Assembly (NCBI GenBank): GCA_963778845.1
Contig: CAVZVW010000009.1
Location: 1,702,206-1,742,205 of the forward strand
DNA length: 40,000 bases
Direction: 5' to 3'
From: an uncultured Actinomycetota bacterium
GTDB taxonomy: Bacteria > Actinomycetota > Actinomycetes > Actinomycetales > Kineosporiaceae
Each line of letters opens with the position of its first letter. The stretch's first letter is position 1. The position numbers and the translations under genes were made by a program. Shown here in pieces: positions 5,231-37,947 of this stretch. The notes beneath the pieces were generated by a model. That model ran no database searches. It was not told the origin of the DNA and worked only from the letters and a program-made list of their open reading frames with translations.

Positions 5231-6472
5231 GTGTATGCCACACCGCAGGTGCTGGCGGCCACCGGCGACGCCGCATGGGTGCGTGCAATGCTCACCACGG
5301 AGGCCGCCCTTGCGCGTGCCGGCGCCGAGGTCGGCCTGGTGCCGCCGGGGTGCGCGGCCGACATCGTGGCCGCCTGCCGAACGGACCTGGTGGACGTCGC
5401 GCAGCTGGCTGCCGCTGCCGGCGCCGACGCCACCCCGGTCACCGCGCTGGTGCGTCGGTTGCGCGAGCTGGCAGGCCCGCGGGCGGCACGGTACGTGCAT
5501 CTCGGCGCGACCAGCCAGGACATCCTCGACTGCGCCCAGATGTTGGTGGCGCGATCGGCGATCGAGGAGGTGCTGGTCGACGCCGCTGAGGTGGCCCGGC
5601 TGCTGGCCGGGCTGGCCGCGGTCCACCGCGACGCCGAGCAGGTCGGTCGCACGCTGCTGCGGCAGGCCGCGGTCACGACGTTCGGGGCAGCGTGCGCGGC
5701 GCGGCTGGTGGCCGTCGACGAGGCGCGCCACCGGCTCGCCGACGTGAGCCGGCGCCGGCTCGCCGTGCAGCTCGGCGGGCCGGTCGGCGTCCTGGGCGGG
5801 CTCGGCCCGCGAGCCCTCGACCTGGCAGCCGCGCTGGCCCGGGAGCTCGGCCTGGCTGAGCCGGTGACGCCCTGGCACACCTCCCGCGGCAGGGTGGTCG
5901 AGGTCGCCGCCGCCGCCGGTGTCCTGGCCGGCGAGCTCGGCGCGGTCTCGGCCGACCTCGTGCTGCTCGCGTCGGTGGAGATCGGCGAGGTCGCACCGTC
6001 GCACCCGGGCGGGTCCTCGGCCATGCCGCACAAGCAGAACTCGGCACGAGCCGTGCTCGCGGTCGCGTGCACCCACCGGGTCCCGGGGCTGGTCGCCACG
6101 CTGATGGCGGGCATGCCGCAGCAGCTGCAGCGCGCCGCCGGGGCGTGGCAGGCGGAGTGGGGAACGCAGTCGAGCCTGCTGTGCCTGGTCGCGGCGAGCG
6201 CGCAGCACACCCGCGCGGCGCTGGACGGTCTTCATGTCGACACCGCGCGGATGGCCGACCACGTGGCTGAGCTACGCTCACTTGCCCGCTCGGGGTCGCT
6301 CGACGCGCAGACCTGGCTCGACCCCGGCACCGCCGGGCTGCTCGTGGACCGGGCCCTCCAGGCGCACGCGAACCTCGCCACACCCGGCAGCCCAGCAGAA
6401 GATCCGACCGACCGTACAGCAGCGGGCCTGACCGGCCGCACGGCCGACGACCCGGCCGGAGGCACCCGGTGA
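5231..6472 (+). CDS. pcaB: 3-carboxy-cis,cis-muconate cycloisomerase (fumarate-lyase superfamily)
   Basis: Carries the lyase signature GGSSAMPHKQNSARA and HLGATSQDILD. The first canonical start is GTG 5231. The conserved N-terminal LFDA lies just upstream of it in frame, so the true start is uncertain. Confidence 0.82.
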   Translation: MYATPQVLAATGDAAWVRAMLTTEAALARAGAEVGLVPPGCAADIVAACRTDLVDVAQLAAAAGADATPVTALVRRLRELAGPRAARYVHLGATSQDILDCAQMLVARSAIEEVLVDAAEVARLLAGLAAVHRDAEQVGRTLLRQAAVTTFGAACAARLVAVDEARHRLADVSRRRLAVQLGGPVGVLGGLGPRALDLAAALARELGLAEPVTPWHTSRGRVVEVAAAAGVLAGELGAVSADLVLLASVEIGEVAPSHPGGSSAMPHKQNSARAVLAVACTHRVPGLVATLMAGMPQQLQRAAGAWQAEWGTQSSLLCLVAASAQHTRAALDGLHVDTARMADHVAELRSLARSGSLDAQTWLDPGTAGLLVDRALQAHANLATPGSPAEDPTDRTAAGLTGRTADDPAGGTR

Positions 6473-29084: not shown

Positions 29085-29548
29085 CCCGGCCCGGCCACGG
29101 CGTCGTCCGGTGCCGCTCGCGCGACGTCCGCCCCCCGCGGAAGGTCCTCACGCGTGCGCCGCACAGCGACCACGACATCGCCGAACGCCTCGGTCAGGGG
29201 AGCCTGCGGCTTGTGGACGGTGACGTCGACCGCGACGACGCGGCGGTCGGCGAGGCAGGCGAGCGCGATGCGAGCCGCGAGGGTCTCGACCAGCCGCACG
29301 GCCGGGCCGCGAACGACGTCGAGCACGGCGACGGCAAGCCCCCCGTAGTCGACGGTGTCGACGAGCTCGTCGGTGGCCCCGGCGGGTCGGCAGTCCAGGT
29401 GCAGGGTCACGTCGACACCGAACTCCTGACCGTCGCGGCGTTCGTGGTCGAGGACGCCGTGACGACCACGAGCCGTGAGCCCGACCAGGCATACCTGGTC
29501 CAACGGTCGACCGGTGCCGTCGACCACCAGTGCCGACGGGAAGCTCAT
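29081..29548 (-). CDS. folB: Dihydroneopterin aldolase
   Basis: ...GLTARGRHGVLDHERRDGQEFGVDVTL...TVDYGGLA...VDVTVHKPQAP. ATGA overlap with folP. Confidence 0.88.
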   Translation of the reverse strand: MSFPSALVVDGTGRPLDQVCLVGLTARGRHGVLDHERRDGQEFGVDVTLHLDCRPAGATDELVDTVDYGGLAVAVLDVVRGPAVRLVETLAARIALACLADRRVVAVDVTVHKPQAPLTEAFGDVVVAVRRTREDLPRGADVARAAPDDAVAGPG

Positions 29549-30414
29549 CGGTCACCGCCGCGCCGGGCTGCCGCGACAGCAGCGGCGACGCGCACCGCGT
29601 GGGCCGATGCGCGGACCTCGTGCACGCGCACCCCCCACGCGCCCGCGGCGGCGGCGAGTGCCGAGACGGCGGCGGTTGCGTCGTCGCGCTCCTCCATGGG
29701 CACGGGCACCCCGTCGGGGCCGGCCAGCAGCTTCCCGAGGAAGCGCTTCCTCGCGGCTCCGACGAGAACCGGGCGGCCGAGCCCCACGAGTGCGTCGAGG
29801 CGGGCGAGCAGCGCCCAGTTGTGCTCTCCGGTCTTCGCGAAGCCGAGACCGGGGTCGAGAACCACCTGTCGTGGGTCGACCCCCGCCGACACGAGCGCGT
29901 CCAGCCGGGCGGACAGCTCGGCACTCACGTCGGCGACCACGTCGCCGTACACCGCCATCGACTGCATGACCGTGCTGGGGCCACGCCAGTGCATGACCAC
30001 CATCGGCACCTGAGCGTCGGCGACCAAGGACGCCATGTGCGGGTCGGCCAACCCGCCGCTGACGTCGTTGACGAACGTGGCGCCCGCCGCCAGCGCGGCG
30101 TCGGCCACTTCGGCCCGCATCGTGTCGATGCTCACGACGGCGCCCGCCGTGGAGAGCGCACGGACGACAGGGAGCACACGCCGCAGCTCCTCCTCGGGAG
30201 GGATCCGCTCCGCCCCCGGTCGGGTCGACTCCCCCCCGACGTCGAGGACGTCGGCTCCCTCGGCGAGGAGCGCGAGACCGCGGTCGACGGCGGCGCTCGG
30301 AGCGAACCACAGGCCGCCGTCGCTGAACGAGTCCGGGGTGACGTTGACCACGCCCATGACGAGACACCGCCCCGCGGCGGCCAGGTGCGCCGGTAGCCCG
30401 AGGACGTCGCTCAC
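29545..30414 (-). CDS. folP: Dihydropteroate synthase
   Basis: VMGVVNVTPDSFSDGG, DVGGESTRPGA, SIDT, NDVSGG, DPGLGFAKT, GAARKRFLG. Confidence 0.92.
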   Translation of the reverse strand: MSDVLGLPAHLAAAGRCLVMGVVNVTPDSFSDGGLWFAPSAAVDRGLALLAEGADVLDVGGESTRPGAERIPPEEELRRVLPVVRALSTAGAVVSIDTMRAEVADAALAAGATFVNDVSGGLADPHMASLVADAQVPMVVMHWRGPSTVMQSMAVYGDVVADVSAELSARLDALVSAGVDPRQVVLDPGLGFAKTGEHNWALLARLDALVGLGRPVLVGAARKRFLGKLLAGPDGVPVPMEERDDATAAVSALAAAAGAWGVRVHEVRASAHAVRVAAAVAAARRGGDR

Positions 30415-30420
30415 ACAGGC

Positions 30421-30426
30421 ACCCTA
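30421..30426 (-). promoter_or_regulatory. Candidate -10 box (TAGGGT) for a leaderless folP-folB-folK mRNA
   Basis: The minus strand reads TAGGGT-gcctgt-GTG. There are exactly 6 nt between the hexamer and the folP start codon, and no SD. Confidence 0.35.
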
Positions 30427-30681
30427 GATCCTGCCGGCGACGGTCGGGCCACCCGGAGCGCACCCGGCGCCCGTCCTCGGACACCCCCGCGAGGAGCACC
30501 CCGGCGAGCCGCCCCACAGCGGGGTCGGCGGTGGGCTCCGCGGGGTCGCTGAAGCGGCCCCATCCACAGCATCGGGCCAGTCGTCCACACGTTGCCCACC
30601 GTGTTCATGTAGTTACCCACACCCTCGTGCACAGATTCCTCCACAAGCCGGGAACCGTTGCAGCGCAAGGAGATCGGGGAC

Positions 30682-30753
30682 GTGCCGACATTCGACAAGA
30701 TCGACGAGATTTCTTGCCGGAACCCCTTGCGCCCACCTCTCAACCAGGAGTAG
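30682..30753 (+). CDS. Possible 23-aa small ORF (VPTFDKIDEISCRNPLRPPLNQE) in the low-GC patch
   Basis: Canonical AAGGAG (30667-30672) lies 9 nt upstream of GTG 30682. Stop TAG at 30751-30753. Codon usage is atypical (aca, att, tct). Too short for the ORF track. Confidence 0.15.
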   Translation: MPTFDKIDEISCRNPLRPPLNQE

Positions 30754-30780
30754 ACATCTCCCCACGCCACCACGAACGGT

Positions 30781-31381
30781 GGTCGAACTCGGAGGAGACT
30801 CCGGGGGATCTGAGGGCCTGGGAGACCAGGCCCGAGGACCTGGATCCGGCAGGCGAGGTCGGTTGCGGGGCAACCCGCACGAGACCGAGCACCGGGACTG
30901 GGGGCTGGCGGAAATGGTGACGATCCGGGGGCGGGGAAGACCGATCCAGGGCTGACTCGCTGGCCTCGCAAGAGGCCAGTGTGAGGCTGCCGCGGGTGAC
31001 GACGCGGAGGGTCGGAGGTAACCGCGCTTGGAAGGTCGCACTGCGTGCAACGACCCGGCTTCGGCCGGGTCGAGGCCCGGATGTGGCAGAGCCCCAGGTC
31101 GGCTTCGGTCGACCGAGGGCGCGCCGCAGGGTCCTCGATGTCGGCTTCGGCTGGCGGAGGGACCGTCGAGATCGTACTGGAGCGGCTCTGGCCGCGAAGG
31201 TCCTCTCGGTACCGGGTCGGGTTCGGCCTCGGCTGGACCGCCGAACGGGCGTCATCCCGAGACGGCCTGCGGAGCCCGACTCCGACGCTCTGCTCCCTCT
31301 GGGGAGCGGTGCAGCAGGGTAGGGCACCAACGGACGGCGACCACCGGCAAGGCCCCTCGAACTCATACTTCGAGGGGCCTT
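30781..31381 (+). ncRNA. Candidate large structured RNA of unknown class (5' boundary uncertain)
   Basis: GNRA-capped perfect stems at 30814-30833 (GAGA, 8 bp), 30864-30879 (GCAA, 6 bp) and 30960-30979 (GCAA, 8 bp). C(UUCG)G hairpins at 31053-31070, 31098-31113 and 31140-31155. Further stems at 30990-31007 and 31292-31307. The block ends at a terminator-like stem. No protein-like ORF in any frame. Confidence 0.4.
31349..31381 (+). terminator. Intrinsic-terminator-like hairpin (13-bp stem, 7-nt loop)
   Basis: AAGGCCCCTCGAA-ctcatac-TTCGAGGGGCCTT, followed by GTCGTATGTCT on the plus strand. The minus-strand tail has no T run. Confidence 0.5.
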
Positions 31382-31689
31382 GTCGTATGTCTAGCGTGCC
31401 AGAGCCGTTCCGTTCGGCAGCGACACGCGGCTGCATTGACAACGAAACTGTCGACGGCACTGGTGTCGGGGACGACCTTGACGGTGAGGTCCGACCACAC
31501 GTGTCGTGGAGATGCCGGCCGCACCGCTGACGGTCTCGGTCGTCGTCACCACGACGTTGGCCCCGGCCCGCCGTCGACTCGGCGCGGCCCTCGCACCGGC
31601 CCCCTGAACCCCAGAGCGGCCGGCCCTGCTGGTCCCGCCGACCCGACGCGCCGGGGCAGACAAGGACCGAAACGATTTGGCACACTTCC

Positions 31690-33546
31690 GTGATGACGAG
31701 GAGGCCGCAACTGCGGGCGGGCCGGGGAGTGCACGTCCCGTTGCTGGAGTGGCTTCCCGGCTATGAGTGGCGGGACCTGCGCCACGACGCCATGGCCGGC
31801 GCCGCGGTCGCAGCCCTGGCAGTGCCGCAGTCCCTCGGATATGCAGCAGTAGCAGGTGTGCCTGTCCAGGTCGGCCTCTACACGTTGCCGCCCGCCTTCC
31901 TCGCCTACGCAGTGATGGGCAGCTCTCGCCGCCTGGTCGTGGGGCCCGTGTCCACCATCGCCGTGCTCTCGGGCAGCATCGTGGCGGGCATGGCCGGCGG
32001 CGACCCCCAACGCGCGCAGTCACTCACGGCGGCTCTCGCCGTCGTCGCGGGGATCGCGTTGGTGCTGTTGGGCACCCTGCGGGTCGGCTGGGTCGCGGAG
32101 TTCCTCTCAGCCCCCATCGTCACCGGCTTCGTGACGGGCCTCGTGGTCCTCGTGATCCTCGGCGAGCTGCCCGCCCTGCTGGGTCTACCCGTGCCCGAGG
32201 GCTCGACGGTGGACCGTGTGTGGGCACTGGCCTCCGAGGCTAACCAGGTGCACGCCGCCACGATCCTGCTGAGCGCCCTCTCGCTGACGATCCTGCTCGC
32301 AGGACGGCGCTGGGCGCGGTCCGTCCCCTGGAGCCTGCTGGTGCTGATCGGCGGGATCGCGGCGTCACGGCTGCTGGGCATGGAGGAGCACGGGATAGCG
32401 GTGGTCGGCTATGTGCCGACCGGGCTGCCATTGCCGCGACTTCCCGCCGTGAGCGTCCGGGACCTGTCCGGAGTCGTGACGGGCGGGCTCGCGATCGCGA
32501 TGGTGGGCCTGGCCGAAGGCCTCGCCGCAGCGCGGCTCTTCGGTGCCCGGCACCACGAACGCGTCGACGCCGACCAAGAGCTCGTGGCCAACGGGGTCGC
32601 CGATCTTGCGACAGGGCTCGTCGGCGGCATGCCGGTGGCAGGCAGCCTGTCCAAGACCGCTGTGGCGGACAGGGCCGGCAGCCGCACCCAGGTGTGCGGC
32701 CTCGTGGCCGCCTGGCTGTGTCTGGCTGTCCTGGTGGCGCTGGCCGGCCTGGTCGCCGACCTTCCCCGCGCCGTCCTCTCCTCCATCGTCGTGGCCGCGG
32801 TGATCGGCCTGATCGACGTCCAGGCCTTCCTGCGCTACCGCGCCGTTCGCCGCAACGACCTGATCTCCGCCTTGGTGGCACTACTGGGCGTTCTGCTGCT
32901 CGGGCCGCTCAACGGGCTCCTGCTCGCGATCGGCCAGTCGCTGCTCGGGCTGGTCTACCGCTCCGTTCAGGTGAACGTGGACCCGATGGGCAAGGTCCCC
33001 GACGAGAAGGCCGCCTGGGGGTCGGTGGTCGGGCACCCGGAGCGGCGCACGCCACCCGACGTTCTCGTGGTGCGCCTGGACGGTCCACTGTTCTGGCCCA
33101 ACGCGGAGAGCGTCCACGACCGGGTCCTGCGGACGGTGGCCGCGCACCCGGAGGCCAAGGCTCTCGTGCTCGACCTCGAGGCCACCGGCCAGCTCGACAC
33201 CACCAGCGCCGACGTGCTGGTGCGCCTGCTCACCACGCTGCGCGACCAGGGAGTGGACCTCTACCTCGTGCGGGTGTTCGCCTCCGCACGCGGGGTGCTC
33301 CTGCGCTGCGGCCTGATGGACCGGCTGGGCGAGGACCATCTCTGGCACTCGATCTCAGCGGGGGTCAAGGCCGCACGGCGTGGACCTGCCCTCGTGCCCG
33401 CCGGCGGCTCGGACGTCGAGGCAGGCGTGGCTACCGCAGACGACTCCGGCGCCGAGCTCATCGCGGCCGAGACCCTCGAGGACGACGACGACCCCGACAT
33501 CGACGAGAAGGAGCGGATCGCCGTCCGGCACAACGGTGAGCGCTGA
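31690..33546 (+). CDS. SulP-family anion transporter with a C-terminal STAS domain
   Basis: ...DAMAGAAVAALAVPQSLGYAAVAGVP.QVGLYT... with about 10-12 TM helices, then a STAS-like tail (VLVVRLDGPLFWPNAESV...LDLEATGQLDTTSADVL). Start GTG 31690 or ATG 31693. Confidence 0.88.
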   Translation: MMTRRPQLRAGRGVHVPLLEWLPGYEWRDLRHDAMAGAAVAALAVPQSLGYAAVAGVPVQVGLYTLPPAFLAYAVMGSSRRLVVGPVSTIAVLSGSIVAGMAGGDPQRAQSLTAALAVVAGIALVLLGTLRVGWVAEFLSAPIVTGFVTGLVVLVILGELPALLGLPVPEGSTVDRVWALASEANQVHAATILLSALSLTILLAGRRWARSVPWSLLVLIGGIAASRLLGMEEHGIAVVGYVPTGLPLPRLPAVSVRDLSGVVTGGLAIAMVGLAEGLAAARLFGARHHERVDADQELVANGVADLATGLVGGMPVAGSLSKTAVADRAGSRTQVCGLVAAWLCLAVLVALAGLVADLPRAVLSSIVVAAVIGLIDVQAFLRYRAVRRNDLISALVALLGVLLLGPLNGLLLAIGQSLLGLVYRSVQVNVDPMGKVPDEKAAWGSVVGHPERRTPPDVLVVRLDGPLFWPNAESVHDRVLRTVAAHPEAKALVLDLEATGQLDTTSADVLVRLLTTLRDQGVDLYLVRVFASARGVLLRCGLMDRLGEDHLWHSISAGVKAARRGPALVPAGGSDVEAGVATADDSGAELIAAETLEDDDDPDIDEKERIAVRHNGER

Positions 33547-33564: not shown

Positions 33565-34326
33565 TCAGGCGCGGCCGAGGATCAGGCTCATGGCCTCGGC
33601 GCGGGTGGCTGCATCGCGCAGCTGCCCTCGCACGGCCGAGGTGACCGTGCGCGACCCCGGCTTGCGCACCCCGCGCATCGTCATGCACATGTGCTCGCAC
33701 TCGATCACGACGATGACGCCACGCGGCTGCAGGATCGCCACGAGGGCGTCGGCCACCTGGCTCGTGAGCCGTTCCTGCACCTGGGGGCGCCGCGCGTAGA
33801 CGTCGACCAGCCTGGCCAGCTTGCTCAGGCCGGTGATGCGGCCGTCGGAGGCCGGGACGTAGCCGACGTGGGCGACGCCGTGGAAGGGCACGAGGTGGTG
33901 CTCGCAGCAGGAGAAGACCTCGATGTCCTTGACCAGCACCAGCTCGTCGTGCCCGAGGTCGAAGGTGGTCGTCAGCACGTCCTGCGGCTCCTGCCACAGG
34001 CCGGCGAACATCTCCGCGTAGGCACGTGCCACCCGCTGCGGGGTGCTGCGCAGGCCGTCGCGCTCGGGGTTCTCACCGATCGCCAGCAGGATCTCGCGAA
34101 CGGCGGCCTCGACGCGCCCCGCGTCGTAGGGCTGCCTTCGTGACGGCCCCGCCTCGACGGCCTCGCTCAGCGCAGCTCTCCCGTCGTGCCTGCCGGAGCC
34201 GTGCCGGCGGCCGGGGACGTCGCGTGCTCGGATGCGCCGTTGGACCCGCCGTTGAGCGCAGTGCGCTCGGCCGGGGTCAGAACCGGTGGGAGGTCGGAGA
34301 CCACGCGGCGGGCGCTGGACAACCAC
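33565..34326 (-). CDS. folE: GTP cyclohydrolase I
   Basis: [77 protein letters not shown]. The only canonical start is GTG 34326, which overlaps the ftsH 3' end by 160 nt. A homologue-like length of 201 aa would need CTG 34170. Confidence 0.85.
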
Positions 34327-36170
34327 ACCGGGCGTTCGGGACGCTTCACCACGGGCGCGAAGATCTTGGCGAGGTCGTCCTTGGCCAGCGTCTCGCGCTC
34401 GAGCAGCGCCAGCACGAGGCCGTCGAGGATGTCCCGGTTCTCCACGAGGATCTCCCAGGCCTCGTCGTGGGCGGCGTCGATCAGTCGACGGACCTCCTCG
34501 TCGACGACGCTGGCGACCTCTTCGGAGTAGTCGCGCTGGTGGCCGTAGTCACGCCCGAGGAAGACCTCGCCCTGGCTCTGACCGAGCTTGATGGCACCGA
34601 CCCGCTCCGACATGCCGAACTGGGTGACCATGCGACGTGCCAGCGTCGTGGCCTTCTCGATGTCGTTGCTCGCGCCGGTCGTGGGGTCGTGGAAGACCAG
34701 CTCCTCGGCCACCCGCCCGCCGAGGGCGAAGGCGAGCTGGTCGAGGATCTCGTTGCGCGTCGTGGAGTACTTGTCGTCGGTCGGCAGCACCATCGTGTAG
34801 CCCAGCGCCCGGCCACGCGGCAGGATCGTGACCTTGGTGACGGGCTCGGTGTGCCGCAACGCCGAGGCCACGAGGGCGTGCCCGCCCTCGTGGTAGGCGG
34901 TGATCTTCTTCTCCTTGTCGTTCATGATGCGCGTGCGCTTCTGCGGCCCGGCCACGACGCGGTCGATGGCCTCGTCGAGGGCGTGGTCGTCGATGAGGCG
35001 GGCGCCCGCTCGTGCCGTCAGCAGCGCCGCCTCGTTCAGCACGTTGGCCAGGTCGGCACCCGTGAAGCCGGGGGTGCGCCGGGCGACGGCCTTGAGGTCG
35101 ACGGCGGGAGCCATGGGCTTGCCCTTGGCGTGCACCTGAAGGATCTCGTGGCGCCCCCGCATGTCCGGCGGCTCCACCGCGATCTGCCTGTCGAAGCGGC
35201 CAGGACGCAGGAGGGCGGGGTCGAGGATGTCCGGACGGTTCGTCGCAGCGATCAGGATCACGTTGGTCTTGACGTCGAAGCCGTCCATCTCGACCAGCAG
35301 CTGGTTCAGCGTCTGCTCGCGCTCGTCGTGACCACCGCCCAGCCCGGCGCCACGGTGCCGGCCGACCGCGTCGATCTCGTCCACGAACACGATCGCCGGC
35401 GCGTTCGCCTTCGCCTGGTCGAACAGGTCGCGCACCCGGCTGGCGCCGACGCCCACGAACATCTCGACGAAGTCCGAGCCGGAGATCGAGTAGAAGGGGA
35501 CTGCAGCCTCCCCGGCCACCGCACGCGCCAGGAGCGTCTTGCCCGTGCCAGGAGGCCCGTAGAGCAGCACACCCTTGGGGATCTTGGCGCCGACCGCCTG
35601 GAACTTCGCCGGCTCGGCGAGGAACTCCTTGATCTCCTGGAGCTCCTCCACCGCCTCGTCCGCCCCCGCGACGTCGGAGAACGTGACCTTGGGCATGTCC
35701 TTGTTGACCAGCTTCGCCCGCGACTTGCCGAAGTTCATGACGCGCGACCCCCCGCCCTGCATCTGGCTCATGAGGAACCAGAAGAGGCCGAGGATCAGCA
35801 GCAGCGGCAGCACGGTGATCAACAGGCTGGAGATCCAGGACGACGTGGCAACGGAGTCGTCGAAGCCCTGGTCCGGCGGGTGGGCCTTGAGCAGGTCGAC
35901 GATCTGGACTCCGCGCGGCTCGACGTAGTACGCCATCACCCGGTTCGCGCCGTCGACGGTCTCGCCCTGCTTCAGCGTCAGCTCCAGGCGCTGGTCGCGG
36001 TCGATGATCGTGGCGCTGGCGACCTTGTCCTTCTGGATCAGGTCGAGGGCCTGCGAGGTGTCGATCTTGCTGTACCGGTTCGTGTTGAACAGGCTGGCGC
36101 CCACGAACACCACGGTCAGGGCCACGATCACCCACACCACGGGTCCGCGGAGGAGTCGCTTGATGTCCAT
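34167..36170 (-). CDS. ftsH: ATP-dependent zinc metalloprotease FtsH
   Basis: ATG at 36170 ([18 protein letters not shown]...). Walker [26 protein letters not shown], Zn site HEGGHAL. Low-complexity C-terminal tail. Confidence 0.93.
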
Positions 36171-36362
36171 CACCCCGGGCTGACGCCCGTCCTTCCTGAT
36201 CGTCGACACCTGTATCGAAGGTACACCGCCAGGCGTGGGGTGGGGCGCGCCCCGACACCGCACCGACGCGCTGCCGGACACCGTCGTTGACCTGAACGGC
36301 TCGCCCGCCCGCGGTGTTCCACACCCACCTCGCCGTGCTCAGCAGGAGCCCGGGCCGGTCCC

Positions 36363-36902
36363 TCAGGGCGAGTACACGTGGGGGGACAGGGTGGCCACGA
36401 CCCGGAGGTTGCGGAACCGCTCGGCGAAGTCCAGGCCGTAGCCGACGACGAACTCGTTGGGGATGTCGAAGCCGACGTAGCGCAGCGGCACCTGGACCTT
36501 GGCTGCGTCCGGCTTGCGCAGGAGCGTGCACACCTCGACGGAGGCCGGTCCGCGGGAGCCGAGGTTCGCCAGCAGCCAGGAGAGGGTGAGCCCGGAGTCG
36601 ACGATGTCCTCCACCACGAGCACGTGACGCCCGGTGATGTCGGCGTCAAGGTCCTTGAGGATGCGCACCACGCCGGAGGACTTGGTACCCGAGCCGTACG
36701 ACGAGACGGCCATCCAGTCGGTGTGCACCCGACCCCGCAGCGCCCTCATGAGATCGGCCATGACCATCACCGCGCCCTTGAGCACACCCACGAGCAGGAG
36801 GTCCCGCCCCGCGTAGTCGGCGTCGATCTCGCCGGCGAGCTCGGCCAGCCGGGTGAGGATCTGCTCCTCGGTCAGAAGCACGCGCTCGACATCCGCACCC
36901 AT
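36363..36902 (-). CDS. hpt: Hypoxanthine phosphoribosyltransferase
   Basis: ...[16 protein letters not shown]..., [23 protein letters not shown] motif [30 protein letters not shown]. An alternative start is GTG 36917. Confidence 0.9.
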
Positions 36903-36918
36903 GTCGCTGGCGTCCACG

Positions 36919-37947
36919 TCACTCCCGGGTCGGCTCAGTGGGGGTGGCCTCGAGCACCAGCCTCCCATAGTCGCGACGGGCCAGGACTCCGCCCGGCAGA
37001 TGTGTCGGCCCCTGCCCGTGCCACGCCACGACGAAGGCGTCGACGGCCAGCACGTGGCGGCGACCCAGCGCGCCCGCCGGGCACCCGGCTTGCCGCAGCA
37101 GCATCAGCAGCGCCCGACGTCGCACGGCATCCGGCGCGGCCGCGAGGCCGCCCACCGGGTAGCTGCTCGGCTGGAGGGGCAGCCCGTCCGATGCGCGCGC
37201 GACGGTGAGCTGGTCGACCAGCTCGGACGCCGCGGCGTCCAGGGCGTCGGCGTCCTCCCTCAGCAGGTCGGCGGTTCGGGCAAGCCCGGCGACCAGCCCT
37301 GGCCCGAGGGCGTCCCCCAGCGTCGCGACGACGGCGCGCAGGCGTGCTCGTGCGTACGCCGCGTCGGTGTTCGCCGGGTCGTCCCAGACGGCCACGCCCA
37401 GGCGCTCGCAGGCCCGGCGGGTCGTCGTCCTCGACACCCCCAGCAATGGGCGGCGCAGGCGCCCGCGCACCTGCGGCATCCCCGCGAGCGAGCGGGCTCC
37501 GGACCCGCGCGCCAGACCGAGCAGCACCGTCTCGGCCTGGTCGTCGAGGGTGTGACCGAGCAGCACGGTGGCGCCGAGCGGCCGCGCGACCGACTCGATG
37601 GCGGCGTACCGCTGCGCGCGCGCGACGGCCTCGGGACCACCGGTGGCGGACGCGTCCACCGGGCCCGCCACGTCCACAACGCTCACCGGCGCGAGGCCGA
37701 AGGCACGGCACGCCGCGGCCGCCCGGGCTGCGACCGACGCGGAGTCGGGGTGCCAACCGTGGTCCACGACCACCGCCGCGGCCTGCAGCCCCCGCCGCGC
37801 GGCCACGAACGCCGTGGCCTCGGCCAGGGCCAAGGAGTCCGCGCCGCCGCTGCAGGCGGCGAGCAACCAGGCCCCGCGCGGCAGGTCCGCCACGGCGCGC
37901 AGCACCGCGGTGCGCACCTCGGCGACGGCGGGGTCCGGACCTGTCAT
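36919..37947 (-). CDS. tilS: tRNA(Ile)-lysidine synthase
   Basis: PP-loop [12 protein letters not shown]. ...[22 protein letters not shown]...[11 protein letters not shown] at 37947 lies downstream of the neighbouring gene's stop (37994). Confidence 0.85.

Follow-up and report, generated by a model that had tools for sequence, protein, structure and literature searches.

A 40,000-nucleotide stretch of DNA from an uncultured actinobacterium of the Kineosporiaceae (assembly GCA_963778845.1, contig CAVZVW010000009.1; the whole stretch is referred to below as the window) has the usual gene row ftsH–folE–folP–folB–folK broken by a gap at 30415–31689. Judging from the sequence and its relatives, we consider it very probable that this gap contains a stand-alone gene for a structured non-coding RNA of an undescribed family, inserted between folE and folP, and we propose the name folP-divergent RNA for it. 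A sequence-only reading of the window had pointed to a plus-strand structured RNA of ~0.6 kb and of an undescribed class; homologues in other genomes, compensatory base changes, the polarity of the folded strand and the lack of any Rfam or protein match all support this. The extent given for it (30781–31385) stands as regards a ~0.6-kb plus-strand unit, but the start has to be moved ~20 nt earlier, to near 30758–30766, immediately after a conserved −35/−10 pair. The parts of the gene are as follows.

30758–31391, plus strand: predicted non-coding RNA transcript of ~630 nt, its 5′ end uncertain by several nt
30727–30732, plus strand: promoter-like −35 element TTGCGC, with an 18-nt spacer to the −10
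30751–30757, plus strand: promoter-like −10 element TAGACA(T), conserved together with the −35
30759–30908, plus strand: conserved multi-helix 5′ domain of ~150 nt (covariance model R1: 104 bits, E = 3e-17)
30765–30785, plus strand: hairpin H1, CGCCACC-ACGAAC-GGTGG(T)CG, from the RNAalifold consensus
30788–30805, plus strand: hairpin H2, 7 bp with a GAGA loop, 100% of cells paired in nine aligned sequences
30806–30840, plus strand: P3 arm, an 8-bp GAGA-capped hairpin (30814–30833) on a base with tandem G–A
30846–30895, plus strand: P4–P6 arm, ending in the GCAA hairpin 30864–30879
30909–31330, plus strand: variable region, containing the GCAA hairpin 30958–30981 and three UUCG hairpins
31345–31393, plus strand: 3′ hairpin, an inverted repeat with 17-nt arms (31345–31385), a 7-nt loop CUCAUAC and a U-poor tail

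Amongst the evidence for such a gene is the existence of relatives, which had been proposed at the outset as a check together with covariation; homologues were found and compensatory base changes are present in them. In a scan of the loci of FolP relatives, one genome per species, three of 80 loci, those with the closest FolP (77–78%), have similar DNA, located just 5′ of folP and on the other strand. These three are L003 (a Kineosporiaceae metagenome-assembled genome, MAG), L004 (Kineosporia sp. R_H_3, NZ_MWLL01000181.1) and L021 (a groundwater MAG); the RNA is absent from the 77 other actinobacterial folP loci. Exact look-up of FolP relatives added L089, L090 (Kineosporia sp. A_224), L091, L096, L097 and L189/L190 (Kineosporiaceae bacterium GCA_035719045.1, FolP 72%), and the RNA is not seen in relatives in which FolP identity is ≤75% and folE abuts folP. 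With the window there are 11 copies (ten beyond it) in eight lineages (the window; L003; L004/L021/L090; L089; L091; L096; L097; L189/L190), all from Kineosporiaceae-type genomes. Every copy lies upstream of folP and is divergent from it. The RNA lengths are 334, 390–392, 406, 456, 565–572 and 634 nt, and the ends of the homologues of 334–572 nt match those of the window RNA. When applied to 1.07 Mb of sequence, model R1 scored the homologues at 102–144 bits and the next best match at 19 bits; profile and covariance-model searches of the same 1.07 Mb recovered these copies only, and the RNA is single-copy. The exact pattern CGCCACCNNGAACGGTGGTCGA, used on the JGI metagenomes, gave six chance matches in coding DNA and no homologue; with H1 differing in L091 and L189, this pattern asks for too exact a match. 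Two pattern scans of viral contigs gave chance matches only, and BLAST of 30560–31400 against plasmids and phages gave no match. Within the searches made, these results support a restriction of the RNA to Kineosporiaceae-type Actinomycetota.

The 5′ domain is the best-conserved part of the RNA, with a mean column identity of 83% among the first four sequences, and 95.5% of its cells are paired. Ten of its pairs change on both sides, compared with 2.7 ± 1.2 in column shuffles (0 of 500 shuffles reach this number) and no more than three in slid-partner controls; the compensatory substitutions by which a non-coding RNA gene is judged are thus found in this domain. H1 is replaced by CGCC-AAGG-GGCG in L189 and by GCC-N9-GGC in L091. 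In H2, a G–C pair becomes A–U (L091), a C–G pair G–U (L096) and an A–U pair G–U (L097), and its loop reads GAGA, GGGA, GAAA, CUCG or three nucleotides in different copies. The stem sequence of P3 is wholly replaced in homologues with the hairpin kept, capped by GAGA, GCAA, GUGA, UUCG or UCGA. Helices 4, 5 and 6 of the P4–P6 arm have four, one and one double-changed pairs, respectively, and the loop of this arm remains of the GNRA type (GCAA, GAGA, GCGA) in most lineages. The 5′ domain is probably the functional core of the RNA.

The letters of the window tell the same story with regard to folding and strand. The six tetraloop hairpins picked out in the sequence-only reading are all present where it placed them:

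30814–30833, plus strand: GGGCCTGG-GAGA-CCAGGCCC, GNRA loop, 8 bp
30864–30879, plus strand: TGCGGG-GCAA-CCCGCA, GNRA loop
30960–30979, plus strand: CTGGCCTC-GCAA-GAGGCCAG, GNRA loop, the stem lengthening to 10 bp at 30958–30981
31053–31070, 31098–31113 and 31140–31155, plus strand: three C(UUCG)G hairpins, with full extents of 31051–31072, 31097–31114 and 31139–31156

A fourth GNRA hairpin had been overlooked (CTCGGAG-GAGA-CTCCGGG, 30788–30805, the H2 of the consensus). Counting stems of at least 5 bp with a GNRA or UNCG loop, the region 30758–31391 has seven capped hairpins on the plus strand and one on the minus strand. Dinucleotide shuffles lead one to expect 0.38 ± 0.62, and none of 2000 shuffles reaches seven; a chance origin is excluded. 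The segment 30781–31385 folds at −363.6 kcal/mol on the plus strand (z = −8.8) and at −299.9 kcal/mol on the minus strand (z = −4.4), and the minimum free energy of 30758–31395 on the plus strand is −373.6 kcal/mol (z = −10.2). The plus strand is G-rich across the region, the GC skew reaching +0.24. In the paired columns of the 5′ domain there are 18 G–U cells and two A–C cells, and this fixes the strand as plus. The polarity deduced earlier from the loops is therefore borne out by the hairpin counts, by the z-scores and by the G–U to A–C ratio.

Much of what first drew attention to the gap lies in the part of the RNA that is least shared. Similarity detected by nhmmer and blastn is confined to 30551–30892 and 31333–31393, and homologues have between 130 and 370 nt in the variable region. 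The stretch ~30905–31165 has no counterpart in other lineages, so the three UUCG hairpins and the second GCAA hairpin are a lineage-specific expansion. A triplicated module had been proposed for the UUCG hairpins; a hairpin core, YCGGCYUCGGYYGR, is indeed common to the modules, but Tandem Repeats Finder (TRF) reports no repeat, and the case for triplication is weak. A type III antitoxin RNA was considered and rejected: TRF detects no array, the modules share the hairpin core only, and there is no adjacent toxin gene.

Three long forms of the RNA align over their full length, with 187 predicted pairs, 28 of them doubly changed, in consecutive branched domains. The long forms in L003, L096 and L097 contain a second copy of ACGCCACC-loop-GGUGGUC and of the CCGGGGAGACCCGG arm (for example at L096 2319–2400 and ~2190–2235); the second CCGGGGAGACCCGG-type arm is a weak match to the covariance model (17.6 bits). 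This suggests that the long forms grew by internal duplication. Two motifs of the family are complementary, the invariant GGGGGAUC on the 5′ side and the conserved GAUCCCCC in the 3′ domain. In the window the former is represented by GGGGGATC at 30803–30810, and the 3′ domains of L003, L004, L089, L091, L096 and L097 read GATCCCCCTCGAGGG. In most lineages GAUCCCCC adjoins the palindrome CUCGAG; the window and L189 are without the 3′ motif. Amongst the lineages compared, the GGGGGAUC/GAUCCCCC pairing has no covariation. It could be a long-range or an intermolecular contact.

The ends of the gene are marked by conserved signals. All homologues have CTTGCG, a spacer of 17–18 nt and TAGAAAT or TAGACAT at the same distance from the RNA, and we predict a transcription start at ~30762–30766. 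Of the 3′ stem and weakly U-rich tail described previously, the stem stands as the inverted repeat 31345–31385, but the tail is too U-poor to satisfy a terminator scan. The 3′ hairpin is found in every homologue, and several positions of its stem covary (CGCA/UGCG, CGAA/UUCG, CGCG/CGCG); likewise, AAGG/CCUU becomes AGGG/CCCU in L091 and CAGGAC/GUCCUG in L189. The loop sequence AUAC occurs in eight of nine aligned copies and is GUAC in L189, which is outside that alignment. In the Kineosporia version of the RNA, the hairpin at the 3′ end is the GGCAAGGCCCCUCG hairpin. This conserved structure is probably an intrinsic terminator. A conserved promoter-like pair, a conserved 3′ hairpin and a downstream gene that varies from one lineage to another are together what would be expected of a stand-alone RNA gene.

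Upstream of the promoter, another conserved feature comes into view:

30563–30645, plus strand: boxes with a TCCACA core, all in one orientation and in phase, situated between folP and the RNA promoter

The sequence TTGTCCACA is the high-affinity DnaA box of Mycobacterium tuberculosis and Streptomyces coelicolor (PMC4285127). Five 9-mers with no more than two mismatches from it start at 30581, 30592, 30613, 30625 and 30637, and there is an additional TCCACA at 30563. The boxes are spaced by 11–12 bp or multiples of this, and five in 65 bp, all on the plus strand, compares with a window background of 1.6 per kb on both strands. The array is found 5′ of the RNA promoter in L003, L004, L021, L089–L091, L096, L097 and L189, conserved in register, with four to seven same-strand boxes at distances from the −10 that are fixed in most homologues. 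In its clustering and phasing around near matches to TTGTCCACA, it resembles a DnaA-box cluster. A layout of direct repeats at 11 bp also suits regulators of the OmpR/PhoB type. Three roles are conceivable for the array: a divergent promoter under DnaA control, a site for the titration of DnaA, or a target for an OmpR/PhoB-type regulator. Between the array and the −35 there is a palindrome, AACCCGTTG-N5-CAACGGGTT, followed by the A-rich GAAGAAAGTT (L004 ~5741–5783; also in L003, L089, L090, L096 and L097); the window (~30650–30675) and L091 have a different version, GGGAACCGTTGCRGCRCAAGG. The palindrome might serve as an operator or form a small hairpin. On the folP side, CUAGGGUG at 30420–30432 (minus strand), a few nucleotides 5′ of the folP start codon, is conserved in most homologues, scored where the aligned sequence extends to the folP start, and is probably the ribosome-binding region of folP. 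The Kineosporia loci have an A/T-rich TAGAAAAAGT farther upstream of folP, which may be its −10. A target search by eye for complementarity of the RNA to CUAGGGUG found none.

The mode of action that we infer would be as follows. A promoter of its own (−35 TTGCGC, −10 TAGACA) would drive plus-strand transcription of the RNA, probably starting near 30762 and ending at the conserved hairpin 31345–31385. Its 5′ domain would be a multi-helix junction with GNRA-capped arms, serving as the functional core, and its middle would be an expandable region that differs among lineages. By analogy, a compact RNA of this kind may act in trans as a platform to which a cellular partner, probably a protein, binds, and its level may be set by factors that occupy the upstream array, either DnaA or a regulator of the OmpR/PhoB type. 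The RNA gene together with this mode of action is the explanation towards which, on balance, we lean. Its most specific element, a trans-acting platform that binds through the 5′ domain and is expressed under the control of the array, we advance tentatively and at somewhat less than even chances. Going further, a DnaA-box array might drive a large multi-domain RNA class and so couple the state of replication initiation to a trans-acting RNA at a folate (nucleotide-precursor) operon, or the RNA might itself carry out some sophisticated biochemistry, for instance catalysis or assembly into higher-order structures; we think this unlikely.

Several considerations weigh against this interpretation, some touching the RNA gene itself and others its proposed action. 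There are eight independent lineages only, and the pairing statistics are inflated, since sequence similarity guided the alignments and the structure in turn comes from those same alignments. The GGUGGUC of H1 may pair instead with downstream GACCAC(C) segments, and single-sequence folds disagree; the closing helix CUCCC/GGGA may fall 5′ of the true start. The promoter and the terminator are consensus-level assignments: a strict sigma-70 promoter scan makes no call at 30727–30757 and a simple terminator scan none at the 3′ hairpin, the rules of both scans being stricter than actinobacterial signals. The distribution is narrow, as is evident from the JGI exact-pattern scan, which returned no copy, and from the 77 actinobacterial folP loci that have no RNA. 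Finally, the trans-acting and protein-binding steps are drawn from analogy alone, and no partner or target is indicated.

The alternative that survives best is that the module works as DNA, namely as a box array (a DnaA titration site or operator) and a strong hairpin inserted between folE and folP, with any transcript being a by-product. Such a module would insulate folP–folB–folK from ftsH–folE and supply a new regulated promoter. In both L091 and L189 the module is situated exactly between folE and folP, and folE abuts folP in relatives that do not have it; the array is strongly conserved and phased, and the GC-rich hairpin could halt transcription from both sides. However, a by-product would not retain compensatory changes in helices that are hundreds of nucleotides from the array, nor would it keep GNRA loops as GNRA while the stems beneath them change, nor maintain a dedicated −35/−10 pair that faces away from folP. 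We regard this alternative as unlikely.

A somewhat lower probability attaches to the idea of an RNA like 6S or Ms1, which would bind RNA polymerase and store or sequester the enzyme in stationary phase. No known family has emerged from the searches. Rfam 15 (4227 models, including RNase P, tmRNA, SRP, 6S, OLE, ROOL, GOLLD, HEARO, raiA, riboswitches and introns) gives no match in the 40-kb window at gathering scores; at E ≤ 10 the gap has chance matches only, at 15.7–23.9 bits against cut-offs of 35–80. At seven homologue loci nothing falls inside the RNA apart from two weak matches to microRNA models in L004 (E = 1.3 and 5; 16–19 bits against an 83-bit cut-off), and ARAGORN reports no tRNA or tmRNA gene in the window. 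The earlier failure to match the sequence to any known RNA is thereby confirmed at gathering and permissive thresholds alike. In favour of a 6S-type function, the RNA would be stand-alone, probably abundant and equipped with a terminator hairpin, in a phylum, the Actinobacteria, from which canonical 6S is said to be absent (PMC9130861). As a lead only, 6S adjoins the folate gene ygfA in many bacteria (PMC9130861), and the present RNA lies by folP and folE. Against this, the fold is not a rod with a central bubble and closing ends: the consensus has three consecutive, multi-branched domains and a separate terminator, and no 6S model matches even at E = 10. Ms1 had been raised as a candidate by the complementarity of the 5′ and 3′ segments GGUGGUCG and CGACCACC, and was ruled out by synteny and by a separate Kineosporia locus. 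It is encoded between genes for an oxidoreductase and an HAD-IB hydrolase/phosphoserine phosphatase (PMC9130861), and the predicted Ms1 of Kineosporia sp. R_H_3 (NZ_MWLL01000270.1:16182–16534) is on a different contig from that of the folP-divergent RNA (NZ_MWLL01000181.1).

Equally improbable, in our judgement, is a ribozyme or ligand sensor, whose conserved 5′ junction would act as the catalytic centre or as an aptamer, for instance one that senses a metabolite of the folate pathway. RNAs with compact tertiary folds typically combine a size of this order with a conserved junction and several arms capped by GNRA loops. The folP-divergent RNA has all three, and its neighbours are folate genes. 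Nevertheless, no ribozyme or riboswitch model matches it, there is neither an expression platform nor a regulated gene after the 5′ domain, nor can a cleavage site or a ligand be inferred.

Of still lower standing is the suggestion that the RNA is the relic or passenger of a mobile element, be it an intron without an open reading frame (ORF), the RNA of a retron, the guide RNA of an insertion sequence (IS) or a plasmid replication-control RNA with iterons. The module does look inserted at the folE–folP junction, gene content on its 3′ side varies, the direct-repeat boxes resemble iterons and the long forms are internally duplicated. These features have to be set against an RNA that is single-copy and syntenic in all eight lineages, that has no gene for a transposase, reverse transcriptase, integrase or Rep protein alongside it, and that matches no plasmid, phage or viral contig and no intron or retron model. 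The specific candidates of a group II intron, a retron and an IS guide RNA were rejected on the lack of a mobility gene beside the RNA and on its single occurrence in the 1.07 Mb.

The remaining alternatives concern the neighbouring genes and the ORFs that cross the gap. The window has a GC content of 72.7%, as in high-GC actinobacterial DNA, and Pfam assigns its genes around the gap, including folB and folK, as follows:

29545–30414, minus strand: folP
31690–33546, plus strand: sulP
33565–34326, minus strand: folE
34167–36281, minus strand: ftsH
36363–36968, minus strand: hpt

It had been suggested that the structured element might be linked to sulP, which lies on the same strand ~300 nt downstream in the window. 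This is refuted. The gene on the 3′ side of the RNA is sulP in the window, a convergent GDPD gene in L004, L089, L090 and L096, a convergent folE in L091 and L189, and other ORFs in L097; the constant partner is the divergent folP. Since the downstream gene differs between genomes, the RNA is not a sulP leader, and a riboswitch or other cis-regulatory leader of any kind fails for the same reason, the orientation of the downstream gene differing as well. In addition, the strong conserved hairpin closes the RNA unit before sulP, and similar DNA is missing from L001 and L002, the nearest pair of SulP relatives examined (70–72% identity), although L001 covers only 377 nt upstream of sulP. A leader of sulP must be considered very improbable. 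Some further observations on this flank may be recorded. A sulP gene is also found near the RNA in Kineosporia (L004 104–2011, and L090), in an orientation opposite to that in the window and separated from the RNA by two extra genes, Glyphos_transf/NTP_transf_3 and GDPD, and in L091 and L189 folE directly adjoins the RNA. It would seem, then, that genes have repeatedly been gained or rearranged on the 3′ side of the RNA gene. In L001 (3057–4382) and L002 (4034–5362), sulP is followed by a small ORF and then by a gene of ~441 codons for an RVT_1 reverse transcriptase on the opposite strand, and in L002 a gene for a HicA toxin is also found upstream.

A decayed or unannotated protein-coding gene is just as improbable: the gap is crossed by long ORFs on both strands, and there are public calls of 341-residue and 294-residue products, but third-position GC of the coding type is absent from every ORF in the gap, Pfam has no match in any frame, the 424-residue antisense ORF (30411–31685, minus strand) finds only its own public gene call amongst 5.8 billion proteins, indels are not multiples of three and the length varies almost twofold. 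The view that the gap has no protein-like ORF therefore holds, and a protein match, which would have told against the RNA, did not appear. Moreover, the alignment of homologues has a single-nucleotide indel within the best-conserved stretch of the RNA, which rules out a reading frame there. The public calls run antisense over the RNA (341 residues, P0241, window 30411–31685, minus strand, within the 424-residue ORF; 294 residues, L089 3120–4004) and have no Pfam domain. Both hypothetical proteins look like miscalls brought about by high GC content.

A stand-alone structured RNA gene, the reading that we prefer, would be of some consequence. Large, intricately folded bacterial RNAs are rare, and those that have been solved are ribozymes, the cores of ribonucleoproteins or unusual assemblies, so that any further class offers a starting point for new biochemistry. 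The narrow distribution of this one limits its general importance. The system is tractable: cultured Kineosporia strains have a ~390-nt version, and a natural minimal form of 334 nt (L189) defines the core. The conserved phased array of DnaA-box-like sequences provides a concrete regulatory hypothesis, and the spurious protein calls of 294–341 residues in public records should give way to an RNA annotation.

It remains to place the folP-divergent RNA amongst known systems. Its array is comparable to the DnaA-box clusters found outside oriC (titration sites of the datA type and DnaA-regulated promoters) in having five to seven same-orientation boxes within two mismatches of TTGTCCACA at ~11-bp phasing; it differs from them in its association, which is with an RNA gene and the folP promoter region rather than with an origin. 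Like Ms1, the actinobacterial RNA that binds the core of RNA polymerase, the folP-divergent RNA would be a stand-alone species of a few hundred nucleotides with its own promoter and a 3′ hairpin; the neighbours are folP and sulP, GDPD or folE genes, and the fold is branched rather than rod-like. With 6S it would share the character of a probably abundant regulatory RNA encoded beside a gene of folate metabolism, whereas it is two to three times longer and has neither the rod with its central bubble nor a match to any 6S model. OLE, ROOL, GOLLD and the raiA motif RNA are large stand-alone structured RNAs of restricted range with stable tetraloops. The folP-divergent RNA is set apart from these by the absence of a match to their Rfam models even at E = 10, by its Kineosporiaceae-type hosts, by a fixed site divergent from folP, by a variable middle (334–634 nt overall), by its box array and by having no oapA-like partner nearby. 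It resembles them in having no obvious function, in being large and heavily paired, in its conserved helices and many stable tetraloops, and in its narrow range.

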